From contig CP129495.1 in assembly GCA_030584185.1 (NCBI GenBank), positions 1,469,469 to 1,533,468 on the forward strand: a stretch of 64,000 bases of DNA, written 5' to 3'. Origin of the DNA: Acidimicrobiia bacterium. Lineage in GTDB: Bacteria > Actinomycetota > Acidimicrobiia > Spongiisociales > UBA11373. Below are positions 3,655-15,828 of this stretch, piece after piece; position 1 is the first letter of the stretch, and every line of letters begins with the position of its first letter. The notes beneath the pieces were generated by a model. That model did not search any database. It saw only the letters and a list, made by a program, of their open reading frames with translations, and was not told the origin of the DNA. Both the position numbers and the translations under genes were made by a program.

Positions 3655-3857
3655 GGCGCCGGCCCGGCGTCGTCGGATGGTGGCTCCGGGGATGCCTTTC
3701 GCCCTCCGAGCAGGATCGCCAGGCCGACGGCCACCAGAGCGACCGGCCACAGCCGCTCGATGCGGATCGTCCACACATCGAGTGCGTCGAGCAGGAAGGC
3801 GGTGCCGATCACGATGAAGAGCAGGCCGCTGATCAGCGCATCCAGGTGCCGCTTCAT
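3630..3857 (-). CDS. Small membrane protein (75 aa), last gene of the PspC/LiaF-like module
   Basis: It has two hydrophobic helices and its start overlaps the stop of the upstream LiaF-like gene by 4 nt, which suggests translational coupling. Confidence 0.4.
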   Translation of the reverse strand: MKRHLDALISGLLFIVIGTAFLLDALDVWTIRIERLWPVALVAVGLAILLGGRKASPEPPSDDAGPAPQPTEEPD

Positions 3858-4453
3858 CCGGTTCGCACCTCCACCTTGCCGATCACTATGCGGGCGTCGA
3901 TCTTGAACTCCGGATTCGGGGGCGTTTCGACGACCTCGGGGGAGAATCCCGCCGAGGAGCGCCCGAGCACTAGGACGTCACCGATGCCGGCGGTGCCGCG
4001 CACCTCGACCACCGCCCCCTCGGGCACGACGACGACCAATTCCCCCATCACCAGGGACACCTCGATCACCTCGGGGAACTCGGTGGTCCCGGTGAGGTCG
4101 ATCACCATCTTGCCCACTCCCCAGCGGTACTCGGTGGCCGCTTCGGTCGGAGCCTCGTTTCGCTCCCCGATCCCTCCGGCAAGAGGCACCTCGGCGATCA
4201 CCTCGATGGCCGCCGAGAGCAACACCAAAATCGTGAGCACCACTCCAAAGCTGATCAGGCCGCCGTGGCGGCCGCTGGAAGATCCGAGCACCAGTGCCAA
4301 CCCCACGAGGATGAGGGCTGCCGGGAGGATCACCCCCCAGGAGACGTCGACGTCGGTGTACGCCTCGACCAGCCACATGCCGCCGATGGCCACCAGGAGC
4401 ACACCGGTGACGATCCGGCCCATGCGGCGATCGGTGTTGCCCGGGTGGGTCAT
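3854..4453 (-). CDS. LiaF-like / DUF2154-type protein: N-terminal TM helices followed by a beta-rich C-terminal domain
   Basis: The ORF runs 3854..4537 on the minus strand. I chose the internal start MTHPGNTDRR at 4453, which forms an ATGA overlap with the PspC-domain gene stop. The first ~90 aa are hydrophobic and the C-terminal repetitive V/E-rich domain is typical of proteins found downstream of PspC or LiaI. Confidence 0.55.
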   Translation of the reverse strand: MTHPGNTDRRMGRIVTGVLLVAIGGMWLVEAYTDVDVSWGVILPAALILVGLALVLGSSSGRHGGLISFGVVLTILVLLSAAIEVIAEVPLAGGIGERNEAPTEAATEYRWGVGKMVIDLTGTTEFPEVIEVSLVMGELVVVVPEGAVVEVRGTAGIGDVLVLGRSSAGFSPEVVETPPNPEFKIDARIVIGKVEVRTG

Positions 4454-4830
4454 CGGCGCATCCCCGTGGTGAGCAGGGCGGCGCCGACGAAGATGAGGAT
4501 CGCCGGTCCGATCAGCCTGCGCAGCGGTGCGACCCATTCCAGCATCGCCATCACCCCGACGGCCACCAGCACCGCCCCGATCACCAGGCGTGGCGTGGTC
4601 AGCCCGGCCGGGCCAGTCGAAGGTCCGGCTTCGTGGCCCTGGGGCTCCTCGGGGATGGCGATCCAGGCGATCACGTAGGCGAGCACGCCGACTCCGGTGA
4701 AGGCGAGGGCGACGAACGCGATGCGGATCAGCACGGGGTCGATGGTCAGGTACTCGCCTAGCCCGCCGGCGACACCGCCGAGCATGCGGTCCTCGGTGCT
4801 TCGGTAGACGCGCCGCAGGTCGGCTGCCAT
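4450..4830 (-). CDS. PspC-domain envelope stress protein
   Basis: The sequence LRRVYRSTEDRMLGGVAGGLGEYLTIDPVLIRIAFVALAF..GVLAYVIAWIAIPEE is a canonical PspC domain, and it is followed by a further TM segment. Confidence 0.8.
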   Translation of the reverse strand: MAADLRRVYRSTEDRMLGGVAGGLGEYLTIDPVLIRIAFVALAFTGVGVLAYVIAWIAIPEEPQGHEAGPSTGPAGLTTPRLVIGAVLVAVGVMAMLEWVAPLRRLIGPAILIFVGAALLTTGMRR

Positions 4831-5706: not shown

Positions 5707-6693
5707 TCAGCGGCGGGCGATCCGCTCCCAGTCGCGCAGGGCGAAACGGTCGGTCATCCCCGACACGTAATCGATGGCGGCGGCGGCCGCCCCGGCGTCC
5801 TGGTGGCGGTAGGTGTCGGGGACCTCGTCGGGACGCGCCGAGTAGTGGTCCACCAGGTCGCGGATGACGTCGATGGCGTGACGCCGCTGCTCGTCGGCCT
5901 CAGGGCGCAGGTACACCCGATCGAACATGAAGTCGCGCAGCAGGGTCATCGCCTCCAGGGCCTCGGGGTGCATGGTGACCGTTCCCGCCTCCACCGACGC
6001 CCCCACCACCGCCTCGATCATCACCGCGATCCAGGTCTCCGGCGGCCCAAACGCAGCCACCGCCTCCGCCGGCAGGTCGGAGTAGTCGAGCACCCCGACG
6101 CGCACCGCGTCGTGCACGTCGTGGGTGAGGTAGGCGATGCGGTCGGCGTACCGGCACACCATGCCCTCCTCGGTCTCCGGAGGGGGGTCGATCTTCCATG
6201 AGTGCGCTCGAATGCCGTCGAGGGTCTCGACCGTGAGATTGCACGGCTCCAGGACCTCGAACACCCGAACGCTCTGGGCGGCGTGATGCCACTCCCCGGC
6301 GACGTATGGGGTGAGTGCTTCTTCTCCGATGTGTCCGAAGGGCGAGTGCCCGACGTCGTGTCCCAGGCATATCGCCTCGGTGAGCGGCTCGTTCAGCCCG
6401 AGGTAGGCGGCGATGGAACGACCGATCTGGGTGACCTGCAGGGTGTGGGTGAGGCGGGTGACGAAGTGGTCACCGTCGGGGTTGATGAACACCTGGGTCT
6501 TGTGCTTGAGGCGACGGAACGCCTTGGTGTGCAGGATGCGGTCGCGGTCCCTCTCGAAGGCGGTGCGGTGCCGGTCCGGCTCCTCGGGCAGCCGTCGCCC
6601 GCCGCCCTGCGCCGATCGCGCGGCCCCCGGGGCGAGATGCTCCTGCTCCCACTGCTCGGCGATCTGGCGGGTCCGCCGGATCAGGCGGCTCAA
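5707..6693 (-). CDS. dgt: dGTP triphosphohydrolase-like HD-domain phosphohydrolase (short form)
   Basis: This is the C-terminal third of the 1067-aa artefact ORF 5707..8910. It contains RTAFERDRDRILHTKAFRRLKHKTQVF and the HD motif (ICLGHDVGHSPFGH), which match the dGTPase/Dgt family. No in-frame ATG is present, so I chose TTG at 6693, which overlaps the phnE stop (TTGA). Confidence 0.8.
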   Translation of the reverse strand: MSRLIRRTRQIAEQWEQEHLAPGAARSAQGGGRRLPEEPDRHRTAFERDRDRILHTKAFRRLKHKTQVFINPDGDHFVTRLTHTLQVTQIGRSIAAYLGLNEPLTEAICLGHDVGHSPFGHIGEEALTPYVAGEWHHAAQSVRVFEVLEPCNLTVETLDGIRAHSWKIDPPPETEEGMVCRYADRIAYLTHDVHDAVRVGVLDYSDLPAEAVAAFGPPETWIAVMIEAVVGASVEAGTVTMHPEALEAMTLLRDFMFDRVYLRPEADEQRRHAIDVIRDLVDHYSARPDEVPDTYRHQDAGAAAAAIDYVSGMTDRFALRDWERIARR

Positions 6694-8741
6694 ACGATGC
6701 GCTCCCGGATGCGGGCGGAGACGAAGTCGAGGGTCGACACCACGATGGCGATGGCCAGCATCTGCACCGCAGCCGCCCGGTACTGGAGCAGGTTGATGTT
6801 CTGCTGCAGCAGGAACCCGATGCCCCCTCCGCCGGCGAACCCGATGATCGTGGACATGCGGACGTTGATGTCCCACCGGTAGAGGGTGAAGGCGATGTAG
6901 GGCGGAACGATCTGGGGCACGACGGCGTAGACGATGGTCTGCAGCCGGGTGGCTCCGGTGGCGGTGACCGCCTCGATCGGACCGACCAGGATGCTCTCCA
7001 CCTGCTCCGAATAGAGCTTGGCCAGGGCGGCCGTGGTGTGCAGGGCGAGGGCGATGGAGCCGGCGAACGGTCCGATCCCCACCCAGACCACGAAGACGAT
7101 CGCCATGATCAGGGGTTCCACGGAGCGGATGCCGTTGAACAGCGTGCGCGCCGCGTAGTAGGTCGCCATGCCTGCCGGGAGCTGATCCCACCGTCGGGTG
7201 AGGAACACCCCGACGGCACCGAGCACGGCGCCGAGGAGGGCGGGCGCCCACAGCGTGCCCTCGGCTCCGAACGGCGCCATGGCGGCGTCGGCGGCCATCC
7301 CGAGGACGATTCCGAGGAACAGCCCGACGAGCACCCCGGCGATGCCGACCACGAAGCGGATGGCCGTGGCGAGCGCACCCCATCGATCGGGGATGGCGCT
7401 GCGGCCGAGCCGGCCCACCACGGCGCCGCCGGCGAGGGCGAGCAGGGCGCCGCCGGCGGTGGTGGCACGAGCGTTGGAGGTGGCGTTCAGCTGGTACAGC
7501 CACTGCACCATGGCGCCGATGGCGGCGGCGATCACGGCCACTGCCGCCCCTCCCAGCACCAGGCGCACGATCCCGGCCACCGACGGCCGAAGTCGCTGCC
7601 GGACCAGGTGACCGGTCCGGCTGCCGATCATGGCGAACACCACGCCGGTGGTGACGGCGGCGACGACGGTGAGGAATGTGGTGGTGAGGTCGCCGATCAC
7701 CCGGAAGAACCCGCCGAGGAACCCGAACGCCCCGAGGGCATCCTGCAGGTCGCCCCCCACCTCCAGCAGGAACCGGCCGAAGAACCCGAAGGCGAAGAGC
7801 ATGGCCACGGCCACGGTCATGCCCACACCCCAGCGAATCAGGCGCTCCCGGCGGGTGGGTGGCGCCTCGTCCTCCTCGGGGAGGGTGGCCCGCAGGAGGG
7901 CCCAGGCGGCGGCGGCGATGCCCAGGGCGAGCGCCAGCAGCAGCACCGGTTGGTCGCCAACTGCTTCGACGGAGTCGGTCACCCACCTTCCCAGTTGTCG
8001 TCCGACGAAGATTCCCGTGGGGAGGCCGATGATGAACAGCGCCACCGACGAGAGCGGCGCCTTGATGGTGCGCATCAGGTTGCGCGCCGAGAGGAAGGAG
8101 AGGGGGATCGCCACCGCCGTGCCCACCGTGGTGGCCACCAGGGCGAGCATCAGGGTCTCGATGATCTTGTCCCAGGTCTCGATCGTCGACTTCGACCAGG
8201 TCCAGCCGCCGGTGCGCACCTTGGTGACGAACCGCAGCTCCTGAACGGCGTCGTCGGGACGATCGGGGAGGGTGTAGGTGATCGAGAACGAGCCGGCGTC
8301 GTCGGCGGTGATCGAGGTCGTGTTCAGCCTGACCCCCGAGGGCGGGATGAACGAGAGCTGGCCCGACTGGCCGGGAGGGAAGTTGCCGCCGCGCACCGTC
8401 ACCTCGGACTCGGGCAGAGCACAGGTGGGGAACATCTCGATGAACGGCTCGCCCGCCTGTGGCGCCACCGGCTTGAAGCCGCCCAGGGGGCACGGTGTCA
8501 TCACCTGCACCGTGACCTGCGCCTCCTCGGTCTCGTGGGTGATCAGGTCGGGCCGGGCGAGGCCCCGGATGATGCGGATCAGCTGGGTCTGGCGCTGCTC
8601 GTCCTTGACCTCGGTGAGGTCGACGTCGGTGCGCTCGAAGGCGAAGGCGTAGACCACGACCACGGCGAGGATGGTGAGGACCAGGGTCAAGAAGCGCGTG
8701 ACCGGGTTGGCGTGCTGCTTCTGGCTCTCCTTGTGGGCCAT
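6690..8741 (-). CDS. phnE: Phosphonate-type ABC transporter permease: fused, duplicated PhnE with an N-terminal TM anchor and a ~180-aa extracytoplasmic domain
   Basis: Two PhnE signatures occur about 250 aa apart: ETLMLALVATTVGTAVAIPLSFLSARNLM in the middle of the protein and IAFTLYRWDINVRMSTIIGFAGGGGIGFLLQQ at the C-terminus. At 683 aa it is roughly twice the normal PhnE length, with an extra N-terminal domain. Confidence 0.85.
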   Translation of the reverse strand: MAHKESQKQHANPVTRFLTLVLTILAVVVVYAFAFERTDVDLTEVKDEQRQTQLIRIIRGLARPDLITHETEEAQVTVQVMTPCPLGGFKPVAPQAGEPFIEMFPTCALPESEVTVRGGNFPPGQSGQLSFIPPSGVRLNTTSITADDAGSFSITYTLPDRPDDAVQELRFVTKVRTGGWTWSKSTIETWDKIIETLMLALVATTVGTAVAIPLSFLSARNLMRTIKAPLSSVALFIIGLPTGIFVGRQLGRWVTDSVEAVGDQPVLLLALALGIAAAAWALLRATLPEEDEAPPTRRERLIRWGVGMTVAVAMLFAFGFFGRFLLEVGGDLQDALGAFGFLGGFFRVIGDLTTTFLTVVAAVTTGVVFAMIGSRTGHLVRQRLRPSVAGIVRLVLGGAAVAVIAAAIGAMVQWLYQLNATSNARATTAGGALLALAGGAVVGRLGRSAIPDRWGALATAIRFVVGIAGVLVGLFLGIVLGMAADAAMAPFGAEGTLWAPALLGAVLGAVGVFLTRRWDQLPAGMATYYAARTLFNGIRSVEPLIMAIVFVVWVGIGPFAGSIALALHTTAALAKLYSEQVESILVGPIEAVTATGATRLQTIVYAVVPQIVPPYIAFTLYRWDINVRMSTIIGFAGGGGIGFLLQQNINLLQYRAAAVQMLAIAIVVSTLDFVSARIRERIV

Positions 8742-8743
8742 GC

Positions 8744-9496
8744 TCAGCCCACCCTCTCCGCGTCCTTGCCGTAGATGCTCCTGAAAACCTCGTCGTCCAA
8801 GTCGGCTGGAGCGCCCTCGAACACGATCCGGCCCTCGTTGAGGGCCACCACCCGGTCGGCGTAGCGATGGACCAGGTCGAGGAAGTGGAGGCTGCAGAGC
8901 ACGGTGACATCGTCGCTCTGGTTGATGTCCTCCAGGTACTGCATGATCCCGTGGGCGAGCACCGGGTCGAGCGAGGCCACCGGCTCGTCGGCGAGGATCA
9001 TGCGGGGGTCCTGCATCAGCGCCCGGGCGATGCCCACCCGCTGCTGCTGCCCTCCGGAGAGCTCGTCGGCGCGCGCCGTCGCCTTGTCCTCGAGCCCCAC
9101 CCGGGCCAGCTGTGCATGTGCCTTCTTCAGGTCACTCGCCGGGAACCGGTTGATGAGGCTCATCGCCGGGTTGACGTACCCCAGCCTTCCGGCGAGCACG
9201 TTGGTGATCACCTTGGAGCGGTGCACCAGGTTGAAGTGCTGGAACACCATCCCGATCCGTCGGCGGATGCGGCGCAGGTCCTCCTGGTGGGCCAGGGTGA
9301 TGTCCTCGCCGTTCCACACGATGGTCCCGGCGGTGGGCTCGATCAGCCGGTTGATGCAGCGCAGCAGGGTCGACTTGCCGGAGCCGCTCAGCCCGATGAT
9401 GGCGAGGAACTCGCCCTCCGCCACCTCGAAGGAGATGTCGTCGAGGGCGAGAACGCCGCCCTCGTAGATCTTGGTGAGGTTCTTCACCTCGAGCAT
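8744..9496 (-). CDS. phnC: Phosphonate-type ABC transporter ATP-binding protein
   Basis: It has a Walker A (GLSGSGKST), the LSGGQQQR signature and Walker B (ILADEP). The N-terminus MLEVKNLTKIYEGG is PhnC-like. Its stop lies 3 nt from the phnE start. Confidence 0.9.
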   Translation of the reverse strand: MLEVKNLTKIYEGGVLALDDISFEVAEGEFLAIIGLSGSGKSTLLRCINRLIEPTAGTIVWNGEDITLAHQEDLRRIRRRIGMVFQHFNLVHRSKVITNVLAGRLGYVNPAMSLINRFPASDLKKAHAQLARVGLEDKATARADELSGGQQQRVGIARALMQDPRMILADEPVASLDPVLAHGIMQYLEDINQSDDVTVLCSLHFLDLVHRYADRVVALNEGRIVFEGAPADLDDEVFRSIYGKDAERVG

Positions 9497-9625
9497 CCGG
9501 CCCGGCCCTCCCCCGTAGTGTCGGCTCTTTCTAGCGCATCGGAGTGAGGCACACCTCGCCGACGCCGGGAACGAGGAAGGGGCGGGGCCTTGGGCCCCGC
9601 CCCTTCCTCCTCAGGTCGCTGTCGA

Positions 9626-11413
9626 TTACAGGTCGTCGAGGTCGAACCCGAGCGCCTCGAGCAGGGCCCGGATCACGTCGAACTCGGAGTCGTCGGTTTC
9701 GGTGACGCTGCTCCACGAGTAGGCGTCGAACGCCGTGGCGAACCCGTCGGGGTCGTCGGCGGCGAAGGCCTTCAGGGCGGCCACTATGTCGCCCTGCAGG
9801 TCGTCCGGGAACTCCGGCCCGAAGGCCAGGCCGTCGTTCGGGATCGGCTCGGACAGCGCCAGGATCCGCACCTTCTGGATCACGTCGGGCAGCTCCTCGC
9901 GCACGTTGCGGCGGGCGTCACGGGGACGCAGATCGCCGCAGACGAGGTCGCCTTCCACCAGACCGCAGCTCTCGATGGCGTCGGCCGGGATGTCGGCGTT
10001 CTCCGCCGTGCCGTCCCAGACGTCGTTGCCGTCGAGGTCGATGATCGGGCTGAAGAACGTGGTGCCGAAGTCGGCCTCGCCGTTGTAGACGGCCTTGACC
10101 ACGGCGGTGTGCCCGCCGGCTTCGACCGTCTCACCGGGCTCGATCCCCAGCGTCTCGAACATCCCCGAAGGAACCAGGAACCCCGAGGTCGAGCCGCCGT
10201 CCGGGTACGCCCACGAGGCGCCTGCGAGATCCTCGATCGACTCGAAGGCGCTGTCGCGGGCGACGATGAACTGGGTCCAGTACTCGGTGTAGTTGAAGCG
10301 CTCGGCCTTGAGGACCATCTCGACCCCGCAGAGGTCGTTGGCCAGGACATAGGCCTGAGCCGGGATGAACCCCATGGTCGAATCGGGGGCGGCGCACATG
10401 GCCTCCACCGTCGCCGCGTACGAGGTCGGCACCGACACCTCGAAGAAGAGGCCGGTGGCCTCGTTCAGCGCCTCGGCGAGCAGCTCGCCGCCGGCGATGA
10501 TCTCCTCGGCCGAGACCGAAGGCACGAACAGCACCTGGATCGGGTTGTCCTCGGTGCCGAGGGCGACCGGGGCCGGCTCCTCGTAGAGGACGCTTCCCGC
10601 CGGGGCGTCGAACCATGCGTCGTAGATGGCCTGGTAGGTGCCGTCCTCGAACATGTCCTCGAGCGCCGCGTTGAGCTGGGCGAGCAGCTCGGTGCGCTCC
10701 GGGTCCACGCCGAAGCCGTAGTCCTCGTCGGTGTCGATCACCTGGACGACCTCGAGGCCTGCCCGGTTGGCGGCCTCGGCGACGGCCGATGGCAAGTCGA
10801 AGATCACGCCGGTCACCTGGCCCGCCTCGAGGGCGTTGTAGGTGTCTGGGGCCTCGAGGAACTCGACCACCTCGACGCCCTGGGGCGTCAGGTTGGCCGC
10901 GGCCCAGTCGGCGCCGGTGGTGCCGGTCTGGACGGCCACCGAGTCACCGGCGCCGAGGTCCTCGGTGCCGTCGATGAACGGAGTCTCGTCGGTGTTGACC
11001 GTGAGCGCCTGCTGCGCCCGGTAGTAGGGAACGGTGAAGTTCACCTGCTGGGAGCGCTGTTCGGTGATCGTCGTTCCCGACGCCACCACGTCGAAGCGGC
11101 CCGTGGCCAGCTGGGTGAAGATCGTGTCGAAGTCGGTGTCCACCCACTCGACGGTCAACCCGAGACGAGAGGCCATCTCGTTGATCAGGTCGGCGTCGAA
11201 GCCGAGAACCTCTCCGGAGTCGTCGAAGAACTCGAACGGCTCCCAAGGAATGTCGGATCCGACGGTGAGCACACCCTCCTTCTGGGTGAGGCTGCTCGCC
11301 GCGGTCGTGGTGGTGTCGGCGGCGGTGGTCGTGGTCGCGGTGTCGTCGTCGCCGCAGGCGGCGGCTACGAGGGCAAGGACCAGGACCAACCCCAACAACC
11401 TGCGTACTCGCAT
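9626..11413 (-). CDS. Two-domain lipoprotein substrate-binding protein: an N-terminal polar-amino-acid SBP (SBP_bac_3-like) fused to a C-terminal PhnD-like phosphonate/phosphite-binding domain
   Basis: The lipoprotein signal is MRVRRLLGLVLVLALVAAACG, with the ATG at 11413 preceded by AGGAG. Residues ~60-300 resemble glutamine/amino-acid SBPs (VGSDIPWEPFEF...DVVASGTTIT). Residues ~330-590 resemble PhnD/SsuA-type SBPs (FIPAQAYVLAN...GGHTAVVKAVYNGEADFG). Confidence 0.8.
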   Translation of the reverse strand: MRVRRLLGLVLVLALVAAACGDDDTATTTTAADTTTTAASSLTQKEGVLTVGSDIPWEPFEFFDDSGEVLGFDADLINEMASRLGLTVEWVDTDFDTIFTQLATGRFDVVASGTTITEQRSQQVNFTVPYYRAQQALTVNTDETPFIDGTEDLGAGDSVAVQTGTTGADWAAANLTPQGVEVVEFLEAPDTYNALEAGQVTGVIFDLPSAVAEAANRAGLEVVQVIDTDEDYGFGVDPERTELLAQLNAALEDMFEDGTYQAIYDAWFDAPAGSVLYEEPAPVALGTEDNPIQVLFVPSVSAEEIIAGGELLAEALNEATGLFFEVSVPTSYAATVEAMCAAPDSTMGFIPAQAYVLANDLCGVEMVLKAERFNYTEYWTQFIVARDSAFESIEDLAGASWAYPDGGSTSGFLVPSGMFETLGIEPGETVEAGGHTAVVKAVYNGEADFGTTFFSPIIDLDGNDVWDGTAENADIPADAIESCGLVEGDLVCGDLRPRDARRNVREELPDVIQKVRILALSEPIPNDGLAFGPEFPDDLQGDIVAALKAFAADDPDGFATAFDAYSWSSVTETDDSEFDVIRALLEALGFDLDDL

Positions 11414-11499: not shown

Positions 11500-12396
11500 G
11501 TGGAAAGGTGCCTGATGAGCGGTGGGCTGCGGATCGAGGCCGGTTTGATGGCGGTAGTGCTGGCGGTCACCGACGATCGCCCGCGGGTGCTGACCGTGGT
11601 CTCCGATCCGCCTCGCCTGCCGGCAGGGCCCCTGGATCCGGCGTCCGACCGCACCCTGGAGCGGGCGCTGCGCCGATGGGTGGGCGAGACCACGGGATTG
11701 GACCTCGGGTATGTGGAGCAGCTGTACACCTACGGAGACGCCGGGCGCGGCGGTGAGAAGGACGTGCGCCAGTTGGCGATCGCCTACCTGGGGTTGGTCA
11801 GGGAGGGCCCGTTGGGCGGCCAGGCCGAGTGGCGTGACCTGTACGAGTTCCTCCCCTGGGAGGACCGCCGCCAGGAACCGGGCGGGGTGCCCCCGGCCGT
11901 GGGCACCTGGGTTATCGCTGCCGAGAACGAATCTCGGCGCCAGCGTGCGGCGATGGCTTGGGGAGGAGTCGGCTCCTGGGACCCCGAGCGGGCCCTGGAG
12001 CGCTACGAGCTGCTGTTCGAGGTCGGCGTGCTTCCCGAGGCGGGTGGTGAAGGCCTCGCCGGACTGCCGATGGGCCTCGACCATCGGCGGGTGCTCGCCC
12101 AGGCCCTGGGAAGGCTGCGCGGGAAGCTCCAGTACCGGCCGGTCGTGTTCGAGCTCATGCCTTCGGAGTTCACCTTGAGCGCCCTGCAGCGGGTGGTGGA
12201 GGCGGTGGTGGGGCGGCGCCTCCACACCGGGAACTTCCGCCGGCTCCTGGAGCGCACCGGGATGGTCGAGGGCCTGGGCCGGCGCGATGCCGGCACCGGG
12301 GGCCGCCCAGCCGAGCTCCACCGCTTCCGCAGGCAGGTGGTGTTGGAGCGGCCCGCTCCAGGGGTGGGCTTGCCGGGAATGCGCACCTCCGGATGA
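11500..12396 (+). CDS. nrtR: NrtR-like regulator of NAD metabolism (Nudix-related N-domain + C-terminal winged helix)
   Basis: The N-terminal part looks like a degenerate Nudix fold. The C-terminus (LQYRPVVFELMPSEFTLSALQRVVEAVVGRRLHTGNFRRLLERTGMVEGLG) is typical of the NrtR DNA-binding domain. The gene lies directly upstream of nadA-nadB-nadC. The start could be 11515 or 11548. Confidence 0.7.
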   Translation: MERCLMSGGLRIEAGLMAVVLAVTDDRPRVLTVVSDPPRLPAGPLDPASDRTLERALRRWVGETTGLDLGYVEQLYTYGDAGRGGEKDVRQLAIAYLGLVREGPLGGQAEWRDLYEFLPWEDRRQEPGGVPPAVGTWVIAAENESRRQRAAMAWGGVGSWDPERALERYELLFEVGVLPEAGGEGLAGLPMGLDHRRVLAQALGRLRGKLQYRPVVFELMPSEFTLSALQRVVEAVVGRRLHTGNFRRLLERTGMVEGLGRRDAGTGGRPAELHRFRRQVVLERPAPGVGLPGMRTSG

Positions 12397-12444
12397 ACGG
12401 TTGTCGATGGGCGATATACTCGCATTGAGCAAAAGGGAGCCCAC

Positions 12445-13473
12445 ATGACCATAGACCTCCTCCCGCTAGAGTCCCTCGACCAAGCCGAGCGGGATCGGCT
12501 CGACGAGCGCTACGCGACGCTCTCCGGAGTCGTGCCCGAGGCCGAGTGGGAGGCACAGGCTCCGTACGTCGCTGCCATCGAGCGCCTCAAGAAGGAACGC
12601 AACGCGGTGATCATCGCCCACAACTACCAGGTACCCGAGATCTTCCACGGGGCCGCCGACCTGGTGGGGGACTCGCTGGCCATGGCCTACCTCGCCGCCG
12701 AGACCGACGCCGAGGTCGTCGTGGTCGCCGGCGTCCACTTCATGGCCGAGACCGCCAAGTTGGTCAATCCAGACAAGACGATCCTCATCCCTTCCCTCGA
12801 GGCCGGGTGTTCCCTCGCCGAATCGATCACCGGCGCCGACGTGCGCCTGCTGCGTCAGAGGTTCCCAGGGGTTCCCGTGGTCACCTACGTGAACACCTCG
12901 GCCGAGGTGAAGGCGGAGTCCGACATCTGCTGCACCTCCTCCAACGCCGTCGAGGTGGTCGAATCGTTGGGTGTTCCCAGGGTGATCTTCCTCCCCGACG
13001 AGTTCCTGGGGAGGTATGTGGCGACCCAGACCGAGGTCGATGTGATCCTGTGGAAGGGTCACTGCATGGTGCACGAACGATTCACCCCGGAGGAGATCCG
13101 ACGATTCCGGGAGGCCTTCGCAGGAGAGATCGAGGTGCTGGCCCACCCCGAATGCCCGCCGGAAGTGCTCGCCGAGGCCGACTTCGTGGGCTCGACCGGT
13201 GGGCTGGTGAATCGGGTGGCGGCAACCAACCCGCCCCGAGTCCTGCTGATCACGGAGTGCTCGATGGCCTCCAACGTCGCGGTGCGGTTCCCCGACACCG
13301 AGTTCGTCCGGCCATGCAACCTGTGCCCCCACATGGGACAGATCACCCTGCGGCGAATCTACGAGTCGCTGGTCCACATGAAGCACGAGGTGGAGGTTCC
13401 GGCCGAGGTGGCAGGCCGGGCACGAGCCGCCGTGGAGAGGATGCTCGCCGTCGGTCGGGGTCGCGGTGGCTGA
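12445..13473 (+). CDS. nadA: Quinolinate synthase A
   Basis: Conserved NadA motifs ([29 protein letters not shown]) are present across a full-length 342-aa protein. Confidence 0.95.
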
Positions 13474-14977
13474 CCTGGACCGGGTGATCCGCACCGATGC
13501 GGTCGTCGTGGGGACCGGGGTCGCCGGCCTGACCACGGCGCTCTCCTTGCGGGGCTTTGATGTGGCCCTGGTGACCAAGACCGCGCTCGGGGGAGGCTCC
13601 ACCTGGTGGGCACAGGGTGGCATCGCCGCTGCGATATCCGCCGAGGACTCCCCCCGCCTCCACGCCGGCGACACCCTTGCCGTTGGCGCCGGCCTCAATG
13701 ATCCGGGCGCCGTCGCCCTGCTCGCCGAGAACGCCGTCGCCGGGATTCGCATGCTGCTGGAGCGGGGAGCCCGTTTCGATGTCGATGAAGCGGGCCGTCC
13801 CGTGCTGGGGCGGGAGGCGGGCCACTCGGTGCGCCGCATCCTGCACGCCGACGGCGATGCCACCGGGGCCGAGGTCAGCCGGGCCCTGGCCGCCGCCGCC
13901 GCAGGGGCCGATCACCTCGAGGTGCATGAGCACACCTTCGTCACCGACCTGGTCGTGGACGGGGGGAGAGTGGTGGGCGTCACCGCCAGAACCGGGGCCG
14001 GGGAGCGGATCGCCATCCTCGCCGGATCCGTCGTCCTCGCCACCGGGGGCATCGGCCGGGCCTACGCCAACACCACCAATCCGGTGGAGGTGACCGGCGA
14101 CGGGATGGCAATGGCCGCTCGGGCAGGCGCTCGGATAGGAGACGCCGAGTTCGTCCAGTTCCATCCGACCGCCCTCGATGCCGGGGTGGATCCCATGCCC
14201 CTGCTCACCGAGGCGCTTCGGGGCGAGGGGGCGACCCTGATCGACGACGCCGGGGAGCGGTTCATGCCAGGCGAGCATCCCGACGCCGAGCTGGCGCCGC
14301 GCGACGTGGTGGCCCGGGCGGTGTGGCGTCGGATCCGCTCCGGACGCAAGGTGTTCCTCGACGCCACCGCCGCCATCGGCGACGACCTTCCCGAGCGGTT
14401 CCCCACCGTGGATCGCCTGTGCCGGGCGGCAGGAATCGATCCGACCCGGGACCCGGTGCCGGTGGCACCTGCTGCCCACTACCACATGGGCGGGATCGCC
14501 GTTGGCCTGACCGGGCGCTCCACCCTGCCCGGGCTGTGGGCGGTGGGGGAGGCGAGCAGGACGGGTGTGCACGGCGCCAACCGGCTGGCGAGCAACTCCC
14601 TGCTCGAAGGCCTCGTCTTCGGCGAGTCGGTGGCCAGCGACATCGCCGGAGTCGGCGCATCCGCCTCTGTCCGAGTGGGCGAGATAGCCGATCCCGGCCC
14701 GAATCCGGAGCCGACCCCCGACGCCGTTGCCGCCGTTCGCGGGGCGATGTGGGAGGGGGTGGGACTGGTGCGCGATGCCGACTCGTTGCGCGGCGCCCTG
14801 GCGACGATCGGCCGGGTGACGGCCCGACTCCCTGCCGCCTCGGGCGAGGCCCGCAACCTGGCGGAGGTGGCTGCCATCGTGGCCGAGGCCGCCCTGGCAC
14901 GGACGGAGTCTCGCGGCGCCCACTTCCGGTCCGATCACCCGCATCCCGACGAGACCCACCTGGAAACCGCGCGATGA
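13466..14977 (+). CDS. nadB: L-aspartate oxidase
   Basis: It has an FAD-binding N-terminus ([14 protein letters not shown]), QGGIAAA, and the SRGAHFR motif near the C-terminus. It overlaps nadA by 8 nt. Confidence 0.95.
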
Positions 14978-15828
14978 GAGAGTTGCTCCCCGCGGAGGGG
15001 GAGTGGCGGCCACTCCTGGAGATGGCGCTCGCCGAGGACCTGGGCGAAGCCGGTGACATCACGACGGTGGCGATCATCCCTCCCGAGGCTGCGGCCACCG
15101 CACGCCTGGTCGCCAGGGAGCCCGGAGTGGCCGCCGGCGTCCCCATCGCCCTGCAGGCGTTCGCCATGGTCGACCCGGCCGTCACCTGGAGCATCGGCGT
15201 CGGGGAGGGGCACCCCTTCTTCGCCGGCACCCTGCTCGCCGAGGTGACCGGCCCGGCGGCACCGATCCTCACCGCCGAGCGGACCGCACTCAACCTGCTG
15301 GCCAGGACCTGCGGGATCGCCACCCGTACCGCAGCCGTGGTGGCGGCAGTGGCACACACCGGTGTCGAGGTGGCGGCCACCCGCAAGACCACGCCCGGGT
15401 TGCGGGTTCTGGAGAAGTACGCGGTTGTGTGCGGCGGCGGCTCACCCCACAGGTTCGGGCTCCACGACGCGGTGCTGATCAAGGACAACCACCTCGCCGT
15501 GGTGGGCTCGGTGGGAGCCGCCGTGGAGGCCGCCCGTCGCCGAGTGGCACCAGGAGTCGTCGTCGAGGTGGAGGTGACCACGCTGGACGGCCTCGACGAG
15601 GCGATCGCTGCCGGCGCAGACGTGGTGCTGCTCGACAACATGGATCCGGCGGGACTGCGCCTCGCGGTGGAGCGGGCTGCGGGCCGGGTTCGCCTCGAAG
15701 CCTCGGGTGGGATCACCCCGGACACGGTGGTCGCCTTCGCCGAGACCGGCGTCGACGTGGTCTCTCTCGGTTGGCTGACCCACAGCGCCCCTGCCCTCGA
15801 CGTCGCCCTCGATTTCGAGCCCATCTGA
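14974..15828 (+). CDS. nadC: Nicotinate-nucleotide pyrophosphorylase (carboxylating)
   Basis: It has the internal start [11 protein letters not shown] inside the long read-through ORF 14323..15828 and forms an ATGA overlap with the nadB stop. The QAPRT motifs (TRKTTPGLR, LIKDNH, LLDNM) are present. Confidence 0.9.
   Translation: MRELLPAEGEWRPLLEMALAEDLGEAGDITTVAIIPPEAAATARLVAREPGVAAGVPIALQAFAMVDPAVTWSIGVGEGHPFFAGTLLAEVTGPAAPILTAERTALNLLARTCGIATRTAAVVAAVAHTGVEVAATRKTTPGLRVLEKYAVVCGGGSPHRFGLHDAVLIKDNHLAVVGSVGAAVEAARRRVAPGVVVEVEVTTLDGLDEAIAAGADVVLLDNMDPAGLRLAVERAAGRVRLEASGGITPDTVVAFAETGVDVVSLGWLTHSAPALDVALDFEPI

Follow-up and report, generated by a model that had tools for sequence, protein, structure and literature searches.

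A PhnT-type transporter locus of an Acidimicrobiia bacterium with a tandem-flytrap receptor lipoprotein and a long PhnE permease

Tandem receptor domains of ATP-binding cassette (ABC) importers are, to our knowledge, known only within one substrate-binding protein (SBP) family, as in GlnPQ, where each of the two domains supplies amino acids of its own to a shared translocator. Some permeases carry parts that reach out to the receptor; the P2 loop of MalF is a large extracytoplasmic domain between permease helices that contacts the binding protein. In the PhnT family (TC 3.A.1.9), phosphite, hypophosphite, phosphonates, orthophosphate and glycerol phosphates are all known as ligands of characterised receptors (PMC5700983, PMC10284923, PMC12718374), so that a ligand cannot be read off the family name. 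PhnT systems without linked phosphonate catabolism, for which orthophosphate has been proposed or shown as cargo, include Mycobacterium smegmatis PhnDCE and picocyanobacterial PhnD1CE (PMC10284923; TC 3.A.1.9.2 via PMC12718374). Here we describe a PhnT-type locus in a stretch of 64,000 nucleotides from an Acidimicrobiia bacterium (assembly GCA_030584185.1, contig CP129495.1, positions 1,469,469 to 1,533,468), hereafter the window, in which a lipoprotein with two flytrap domains of different families is encoded ahead of a PhnC ATPase and a long PhnE-type permease. The sequence around the locus has ~70% GC, and four genes follow one another head to tail on the minus strand in the order SBP, phnC, permease and HD gene:

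9626-11413, minus strand: SBP gene, 595 amino acids, from the open reading frame list, ATG at 11413
8744-9496, minus strand: phnC, ABC ATPase gene, 250 amino acids (TIGR02315)
6690-8741, minus strand: long PhnE-type permease gene, 683 amino acids (open reading frame list, split match to TIGR01097)
5707-6693, minus strand: gene for a dGTPase-family HD phosphohydrolase, 328 amino acids (Pfam HD and HD_assoc, TTG start)

We propose, with a probability of about one in two, that these genes specify a PhnT-family importer with a long PhnE, in which a two-receptor lipoprotein feeds one translocator. The translocator would be assembled as (PhnC)2(long PhnE)2 and would be served by a lipid-anchored receptor whose two tandem flytraps act independently. 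The PhnD/PtxB-type domain would be the cognate receptor and would bind the PO3-type oxyanion head of its ligand. The LAO/Gln/Arg-type domain would bind an alpha-amino acid of its own, would be a later addition in one Acidimicrobiia lineage, and by analogy with the tandem domains of GlnPQ would most likely be a further receptor that competes with the first for access to the shared translocator.

The receptor lipoprotein

The 595-residue receptor is divided as follows:

11354-11413, minus strand: signal peptide and lipobox MRVRRLLGLVLVLALVAAAC, residues 1-20, with Cys20 (sequence and conservation)
11282-11353, minus strand: Asp/Thr/Ala-rich tether from the lipid anchor to the first domain, residues 21-44 (low complexity)
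10604-11281, minus strand: SBP_bac_3 amino-acid-type Venus flytrap, residues ~45-270 (PF00497, Foldseek)
10544-10603, minus strand: inter-domain linker, residues ~271-290 (between the Pfam matches)
9629-10543, minus strand: PhnD/PtxB-type Venus flytrap, residues ~291-595 (PF12974, TIGR01098)

The first-pass annotation had described an SBP_bac_3 domain and a PhnD-like domain in one lipoprotein, and both the Pfam matches and the lipobox bear this out: SBP_bac_3 covers residues 49-269 (135.7 bits) and Phosphonate-bd residues 296-577 (137.4 bits), each with E ~1e-39, and Cys20 is invariant in 58 fused homologues. An AlphaFold model built on 58 homologues has a mean predicted local distance difference test (pLDDT) of 89 and a predicted template modelling score (pTM) of 0.64; residues 1-37 are unstructured (pLDDT < 50), and residues 271-291 lack regular secondary structure. 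Profile scans and model agree that both flytraps are complete. The N-terminal domain is thus a complete SBP_bac_3 flytrap in its own right, and the alternative that it is a long PhnD extension falls away. The best whole-chain Foldseek matches are themselves tandem flytraps, namely GlnPQ SBD1-SBD2 (6H30, E 9e-27) and the periplasmic tandem of BvgS.

The first-pass annotation had proposed to look for the same fused architecture in other genomes. In a survey of the 120 best 90%-identity clusters of SBP homologues, both Pfam domains are present in 69, and these are 43-74% identical to the SBP of the window; unfused PhnD-like proteins ~70% identical to its C-terminal half also exist. A frameshift or misassembly joining SBP_bac_3 and phnD, or phnE1 and phnE2, is practically inconceivable. 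It could draw on the related loci L090 and L097, which between them hold separate SBP_bac_3/phnD genes and two permease genes, and on the frameshifts seen in the fused gene of some long-read assemblies. Yet the identical 595- and 683-residue proteins come from several independent sequencing runs, dozens of clusters share the continuous architecture, and the permease holds only one PhnE core (see below). The identical SBP is indexed in 34 blocks of the sequence collection, 23 contigs carrying it were read, and four loci with it come from four different sequencing runs. The independent runs and the fused clusters rule the artefact out. The apparent frameshifts themselves lie in the N-domain in L012 (7300-9111) and near the C-terminus in L014 (7209-9109), both long-read assemblies of metagenome-derived genomes.

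The N-terminal domain resembles receptors for amino acids. It is 39% identical to the Arg-binding AncQR (4ZV1), with a Foldseek TM-score of 0.80 over 225/226 residues, and 31% identical to LAO, the sequence of which was checked against the PDB before alignment. Here and below, the geometry of the binding pockets was derived from alignments. The LAO contacts D11, Y14, D30, F52 and S69 correspond to D54, W57, D73, F95 and S112, and S70, S72, R77, S120/T121 and D161 correspond to G113, T115, R120, T165/T166 and D206. Every position mutated in the LAO ligand-site series carries a compatible residue, and all 58 fused homologues retain D73, R120, Q162, T165, T166 and D206, whereas T115 is kept in at least 90% of them. 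Because the LAO contact set is compatibly occupied and invariant in the fused family, the domain is predicted to be a working alpha-amino-acid receptor, and Asp54 together with the aromatic pair would favour a basic or amide side chain. The Lys/Arg/Orn subfamily model of NCBIfam covers SBP residues 35-268 with a score under its cutoff, and the models of named specificity (ArgT, HisJ, GlnH, ArtI/J and TcyJ) all stay under theirs, the best score being that to TIGR01096 (164.9 against 256.35 bits).

The C-terminal domain belongs to the phosphate/phosphite/phosphonate subfamily TIGR01098, which covers residues 289-550 with 134.1 bits against a cutoff of 112.05, and fails the PhnD equivalog TIGR03431 (90.7 bits, cutoff 261.1). 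In the alignment to Te_PtxB of Trichodesmium (5JVB), the chain numbering of which agrees with the residues in PMC5700983, the head-group residues Y55, Y100, S130-T131-S132 and H160 are matched by Y332, Y378, S408-T409-S410 and H435, and the capping tyrosine Y208, which shuts out larger ligands and so restricts PtxB to phosphite, is replaced by Asp527. The head-group residues, R372, D499-A-R501 and N526-D527 are at least 97% conserved among 65 PhnD-like domains from Acidimicrobiia and Chloroflexota, which suggests a PO3-like ligand head held in the same pocket in both phyla. The domain holds a family-specific insertion of ~45-60 amino acids, and its clade lies far from the solved PtxB, HtxB, Escherichia coli PhnD, AioX, ArrX and 9LF9 (which may be GpxB, judged by its name and length); the best profile match to these solved members (E 4.6e-21) covers only the N-terminal two thirds of the domain.

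The gene content of the locus bears on the ligand of this domain. As had been remarked at first reading for C-P lyase and phnWX, no C-P lyase, phnWX or ptxD gene is called within ~10 kb on either side, and no phosphonate or phosphite catabolic gene, phnYZ included, was found in the window neighbourhood or in eight other annotated contexts. Given the Asp in place of the Tyr cap and the lack of linked genes for phosphonate catabolism, orthophosphate or an organophosphate appears more likely than a phosphonate as the ligand of the C-terminal domain. PhnD-like domains of the same clade also occur C-terminal to TIR and Ser/Thr protein kinase domains (P0211, P0235, P0281 and P0215), an arrangement that suggests use as extracellular sensors.

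A different view of the two sites, raised in the first-pass annotation, has a single bifunctional ligand (for instance an aminophosphonate) bridging both domains; alternatively, the locus would be devoted to phosphonate import. In favour of this, the phosphonate equivalog is passed by PhnC and the subfamily model by the SBP, and Asp527 lies at the cap, near where acidic residues of E. coli PhnD hold the amine of 2-aminoethylphosphonate. We nevertheless consider this very improbable. The two sites are complete and separately conserved, and a small ligand cannot fill two closed flytraps; Asp54, at the position that meets the cationic or amide side chain in LAO and GlnBP, would be expected to repel a phosphonate; and the low PhnD equivalog score goes along with the lack of C-P lyase, phnWX, phnYZ and ptxD in the contexts examined. 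The same amino-acid-type domain is also encoded by a separate gene beside a related transporter (L090), and this, together with the full contact set that each flytrap keeps, makes a single bifunctional ligand unlikely.

A single, interrupted PhnE core

The permease is composed of the following parts:

8628-8705, minus strand: first transmembrane helix (TM1), residues ~13-38 (hydropathy, model helix 13-38)
8178-8627, minus strand: extracytoplasmic beta-sandwich, residues ~39-188 (model strands 67-182)
8064-8177, minus strand: PhnE core piece 1, residues 189-226 (TIGR01097 positions 57-94)
7176-8063, minus strand: insertion of ~300 amino acids with ~eight membrane helices, residues 227-522 (hydropathy, model)
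6690-7175, minus strand: PhnE core piece 2, residues 523-683, including the EAA-loop region (TIGR01097 positions 96-252)

This protein had at first been read as two complete PhnE cores behind an extracytoplasmic N-domain in a single chain. The N-domain stands, as a transmembrane helix followed by ~150 amino acids; the second core does not. TIGR01097 matches the permease once, in two pieces ~300 residues apart, with profile positions 57-94 on residues 189-226, positions 96-252 on residues 527-683 and positions 1-56 unmatched, and hhalign of residues 186-522 against 523-683 gives a probability of 0.6%. A duplicated PhnE is thereby ruled out: the permease is a single PhnE core, in which an unrelated stretch of several helices is inserted behind the second helix, and the even number of inserted helices would keep the topology of the core. 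The two halves of the insertion have no detectable kinship to each other either (probability 3%). The whole protein scores 213.2 bits to TIGR01097 against a cutoff of 216.7, and core piece 2 alone scores 199.9 bits and is 70-92% identical across Acidimicrobiia and Chloroflexota. Neither Pfam nor NCBIfam has a match to the N-domain or the insertion, even at E = 10.

An AlphaFold model of the permease built on 81 sequences (mean pLDDT 81) places a PhnE helix at residues 184-207, ~eight helices at 230-514 and the PhnE core at 523-682. A long PhnE has about 14 helices in all. The mean pLDDT of ten-residue blocks is 81-96 in the strands of the beta-sandwich (67-182) and 87-97 in the insertion (231-520). 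The pLDDT is lowest in the canonical conserved parts, at 31-70 (residues 201-223 and 523-683), with the core 523-682 at 52-70; this may come from modelling the chain without its homodimer partner and the ATPase, or from core sequences that vary little. Foldseek of the model against the PDB returned nothing under E = 0.01, and the beta-sandwich gave weak immunoglobulin (Ig)-like matches, to neocarzinostatin and macroglobulin domains. Its Cys84/Cys107 pair is invariant in an alignment of 30 sequences and conserved in at least 90% of one of 81. The N-terminus of the permease is basic and so probably cytoplasmic, and the beta-sandwich, by analogy with MalF P2, probably touches the receptor. Most of the aligned Chloroflexota relatives lack ~80 amino acids (two helices) of the multi-helix insertion. 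In some long PhnE proteins of 720-804 amino acids (P0168, P0179 and P0201), a further insertion of ~200 amino acids is found at the end of the beta-sandwich (alignment columns ~212-400).

The phnC product passes the phosphonate ATPase equivalog TIGR02315 over its full length (333.9 bits, cutoff 266.1). That only one ATPase is encoded, as the first-pass annotation pointed out, is correct but nothing unusual, because the expected complex is a homodimeric PhnC2E2 importer. A long PhnE of ~600-800 amino acids adjoins PhnC in 80 of the 80 species-level genomes returned, and so in at least 80 species, from Acidimicrobiia and many Chloroflexota, among them the complete genome of Leptolinea sp. HRD-7 (L019), the system of which is unfused. 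Synteny of PhnD-like, PhnC and long PhnE genes holds at 78 of these 80 loci. Wherever upstream sequence exists, a PhnD-like gene lies upstream of phnC, with the exceptions of L031 and, outside the 80, L089. In these two Chloroflexota loci (L089, 5629-9818; L031, 7544-11755), a gene for a lipoprotein of ~500 amino acids takes its place, that of L089 being SBP_bac_1/SBP_bac_8 by Pfam and that of L031 being typed by eye only. The SBP_bac_1-type receptor in some long-PhnE operons implies that the receptors are modular. Our literature searches found no paper on the long PhnE, which is annotated simply as PhnE.

Recurrence of the amino-acid module and neighbouring genes

The association of an amino-acid-type receptor with PhnT-type transporters is not limited to the fused gene of the window. 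The related Acidimicrobiia contig L090 (8001-15042) has, at the same dnaX-to-HD locus and directly upstream of another PhnT subtype, a separate gene for a lipoprotein of 526 amino acids in which SBP_bac_3 occurs twice in tandem; its identity to the N-domain encoded in the window is 75%. In that subtype, PhnD and PhnC are 25% and 50% identical to their counterparts, the permease is encoded by two genes (436 and 318 amino acids), and the HD gene is the same. The same two-permease subtype occurs in L097, there behind a fused SBP gene (45% identical). The fused gene of L014 (Chloroflexia) is 29% identical to the window SBP in the N-domain and 59% in the C-domain, and for this reason looks like a separate fusion. 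Clustering at 50% identity yields several fused representatives as well as Bmp+PhnD, Bmp+SBP_bac_3+PhnD, TIR-PhnD and Ser/Thr-kinase-PhnD architectures. Among these, P0238 (L091, 8001-10643) carries Bmp/PnrA-like, SBP_bac_3 and Phosphonate-bd domains in a row on 880 amino acids, and its gene lies within a PhnC/permease operon, between a gene for a 286-amino-acid permease and genes for an ATPase and a 509-amino-acid permease; P0292 (L092, 5078-7033) is a Bmp and Phosphonate-bd protein of 651 amino acids with no adjoining transporter genes. The closest single-domain relative of the N-domain, P0218 (61% identical), belongs to an ordinary SBP-permease amino-acid transporter operon. From these related contexts (L014, L090, L097, P0238 and P0218) we conclude that the amino-acid module is PAAT-derived and was recruited to PhnT-type operons several times. 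Literature searches gave nothing relevant on fused PhnD/SBP_bac_3 receptors or on nucleotide-importing PhnT systems.

Two explanations would take the amino-acid domain away from the adjacent translocator. According to the first, which we regard as unlikely, it docks on a classical PAAT permease encoded elsewhere, and the fusion serves only co-expression or co-anchoring. The normal amino-acid operon of its free-standing relative P0218 speaks for this, and the Bmp fusions P0238 and P0292 suggest that one chain can link receptors whose transporter classes are unrelated. Against it, the 64-kb window and the contexts of L090, L097 and L098 all lack both a PAAT permease and a second ABC ATPase, and the amino-acid module stands beside, or is fused with, PhnT-type systems in at least three cases. 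According to the second, which seems to us quite improbable, the domain has a regulatory or sensory task: depending on its ligand, it would tune the docking or closure of the PhnD-type domain, and the amino acid is not transported. Signalling tandem flytraps do exist, BvgS being among the best structural matches, and TIR and Ser/Thr-kinase proteins carry domains of this PhnD-like clade, apparently as sensors; yet there is no sign of inter-domain communication, and the unfused tandem version in L090 is a separate lipoprotein. A second receptor on the PhnT-type translocator remains our preferred reading.

GGAG lies 9 nt upstream of the SBP ATG (11413), the permease ATG lies 2 nt past the phnC stop codon, and the TTG start of the HD gene overlaps the TGA of the permease (TTGA). 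One further element lies in the spacer between SBP and phnC:

9573-9609, minus strand: perfect 17-bp GC-rich hairpin with a 3-nt loop, arms GAGGAAGGGGCGGGGCC / GGCCCCGCCCCUUCCUC

This hairpin is found just 3' of the SBP stop codon and is not followed by a U-tract; the spacer of 129-132 nt as a whole folds at -75 kcal/mol (z = -4.0 against shuffles). The hairpin may stabilise the transcript or act in attenuation, and in this way raise expression of the SBP over that of the membrane parts. A scan for sigma-70 promoters and terminators had no match.

The HD gene product has PF01966 (HD) and PF13286 (HD_assoc), exceeds the cutoff of TIGR01353 (191.5 against 152.35 bits) and stays just under that of its best equivalog, NF002327 (362 against 393 bits); together with the TTG/TGA overlap, this bears out the earlier description of a dGTPase-like gene that is translationally coupled. 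Of the 21 Acidimicrobiia-type loci with downstream sequence, 20 have the gene immediately behind the permease; no Chloroflexota-labelled locus has it there. Most Acidimicrobiia loci (the 13 loci L005, L013, L021, L034, L047, L048, L057, L066, L070, L076, L079, L081 and L097) have, ahead of the PhnD-like gene, a gene for NT5C, a 5'(3')-deoxyribonucleotidase-family protein without a signal peptide; the two genes adjoin in 10 of the 13 and are ~1.5 kb apart in the other 3. The NT5C gene is absent in the window and its closest relatives. Upstream of the SBP gene, across a 101-bp spacer, a gene for an NrtR-like Nudix-related regulator (11515-12396, plus strand) is divergently oriented and is followed by nadA, nadB and nadC, the whole stretch being 11515-15828 on the plus strand. 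The NrtR-like gene is divergent in six loci (the window, L007, L008, L012, L013 and L097), of which L097 has no nadABC nearby. None of the roughly 55 Chloroflexota-labelled loci has an NT5C, dGTPase-like or NrtR-like neighbour. The divergent spacers of the six loci share no 9-10-mer that could be an NrtR operator or palindrome; a short conserved CGTGATANCCTCGC-like stretch is present in the closest relatives only, and no PHO-box-like GTTCA repeats were seen by eye in the 101-bp spacer. A functional tie to NAD synthesis through nrtR-nadABC was considered and judged to be lineage-specific gene order, nadABC being near the transporter only in the sub-lineage of the window, in L013 and, of about 60 loci from Chloroflexota, in a single contig of Anaerolineae. 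Past the HD gene (window 3854-4830; L001 11485-16131) are PspC-domain and LiaF-like membrane-stress genes and a gene for an 850-amino-acid GGDEF-EAL protein, which look ordinary and have no evident tie to the transporter.

The Acidimicrobiia neighbours hint at a nucleotide-related role but may be inherited gene order. Under such a role, the transporter would import nucleotides or phosphoribosyl compounds in concert with NT5C and the dGTPase-like enzyme under the NrtR-like regulator, which is compatible with the architecture proposed here and which we hold to be doubtful. Its basis is the recurrence of NT5C upstream and of the dGTPase-like gene downstream, the divergent NrtR-like gene that in L097 occurs without nadABC, the fusion of nucleoside-type Bmp domains to related PhnD-like domains, and the family-specific insertion and invariant Asp, Arg and Asn that would enlarge the pocket region. 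However, the Chloroflexota loci have the same pocket residues with none of these neighbours, the synteny may simply be inherited, no NrtR operator was found in the spacers, and we know of no nucleotide-binding ABC receptor of the PhnT family.

Significance and comparison with known systems

Several points weigh against a two-receptor lipoprotein feeding one PhnT-type translocator. PAAT-type binding proteins normally dock on HisQM/GlnP-type permeases and P0218 belongs to an ordinary amino-acid operon, which makes docking of the amino-acid domain on PhnE less certain. The Bmp domain of the triple fusion is hard to square with one translocator taking all domains, and the additions to the permease do not correlate with the amino-acid domain, as most long-PhnE members lack it. 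The SBP falls below the PhnD equivalog cutoff and the permease is 3.5 bits short of the curated PhnE cutoff. Of the two models, that of the SBP, by its pTM, fixes the orientation between the domains poorly, and that of the permease appears weak exactly in the conserved core.

A wider reading would be that PhnT-type translocators take modular receptor arrays of amino-acid, nucleoside (Bmp) and phosphoryl type and thus form a multi-nutrient importer across ABC subfamilies, a tentative idea that we rate as possible but more doubtful than the proposal itself. In that case, the beta-sandwich and the eight-helix insertion would supply extra docking or translocation capacity, and in a sub-variant the phosphoryl-type domain would import nucleotides for the NT5C and dGTPase-like enzymes. 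The stable fusion of an amino-acid-type and a phosphate/phosphonate-type receptor has arisen more than once, with triple fusions in relatives, and one may ask if receptors that belong to different families can hand their cargo to the same type I ABC translocator. The permease type, a long PhnE with its Ig-like outer domain and with an insertion of no known fold, is widespread in Acidimicrobiia and Chloroflexota, which are abundant in soil, sediment and wastewater; a conserved permease with such undescribed additions is arguably more interesting than a duplicated PhnE. Since the receptor clade has no characterised close relative and the permease is annotated as PhnE, genomic inferences of phosphonate uptake in organisms with a long PhnE are probably unreliable.

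Compared with PhnCDE, PtxABC, HtxBCDE and GpxB of the PhnT family, the locus has the PhnC equivalog, a PhnE-type core, a PF12974 receptor and the residues for a PO3 head in common. Unlike these systems, its receptor lacks the Tyr cap and has the ~45-60-amino-acid insertion and an extra amino-acid domain, its permease has one additional transmembrane helix, the beta-sandwich and ~8 further helices, and no catabolic genes are linked. It shares with M. smegmatis PhnDCE and PhnD1CE the PhnT type and the lack of linked phosphonate catabolism; Asn526 corresponds to the Asp/Asn hydrogen-bond acceptor of PhnD1, whereas the cap Tyr of PhnD1 is Asp here.

The PAAT receptors LAO, HisJ, GlnH and ArgBP are 31-39% identical to the N-domain and have the same fold and alpha-amino-acid contacts; in contrast to them, the N-domain is under every equivalog cutoff, is encoded without a neighbouring PAAT permease or ATPase and forms the front part of a fusion with a PhnD-type domain. 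The beta-sandwich sits between TM1 and TM2 of the permease, a position analogous to that of MalF P2, to which it has no sequence or significant structural similarity. GlnPQ of Lactococcus lactis, the best whole-chain structural match, likewise has two complete flytraps in one chain; its domains are of one family and fused to the permease, whereas those described here combine PF00497 with PF12974 on a separate lipoprotein encoded ahead of a PhnE-type translocator.

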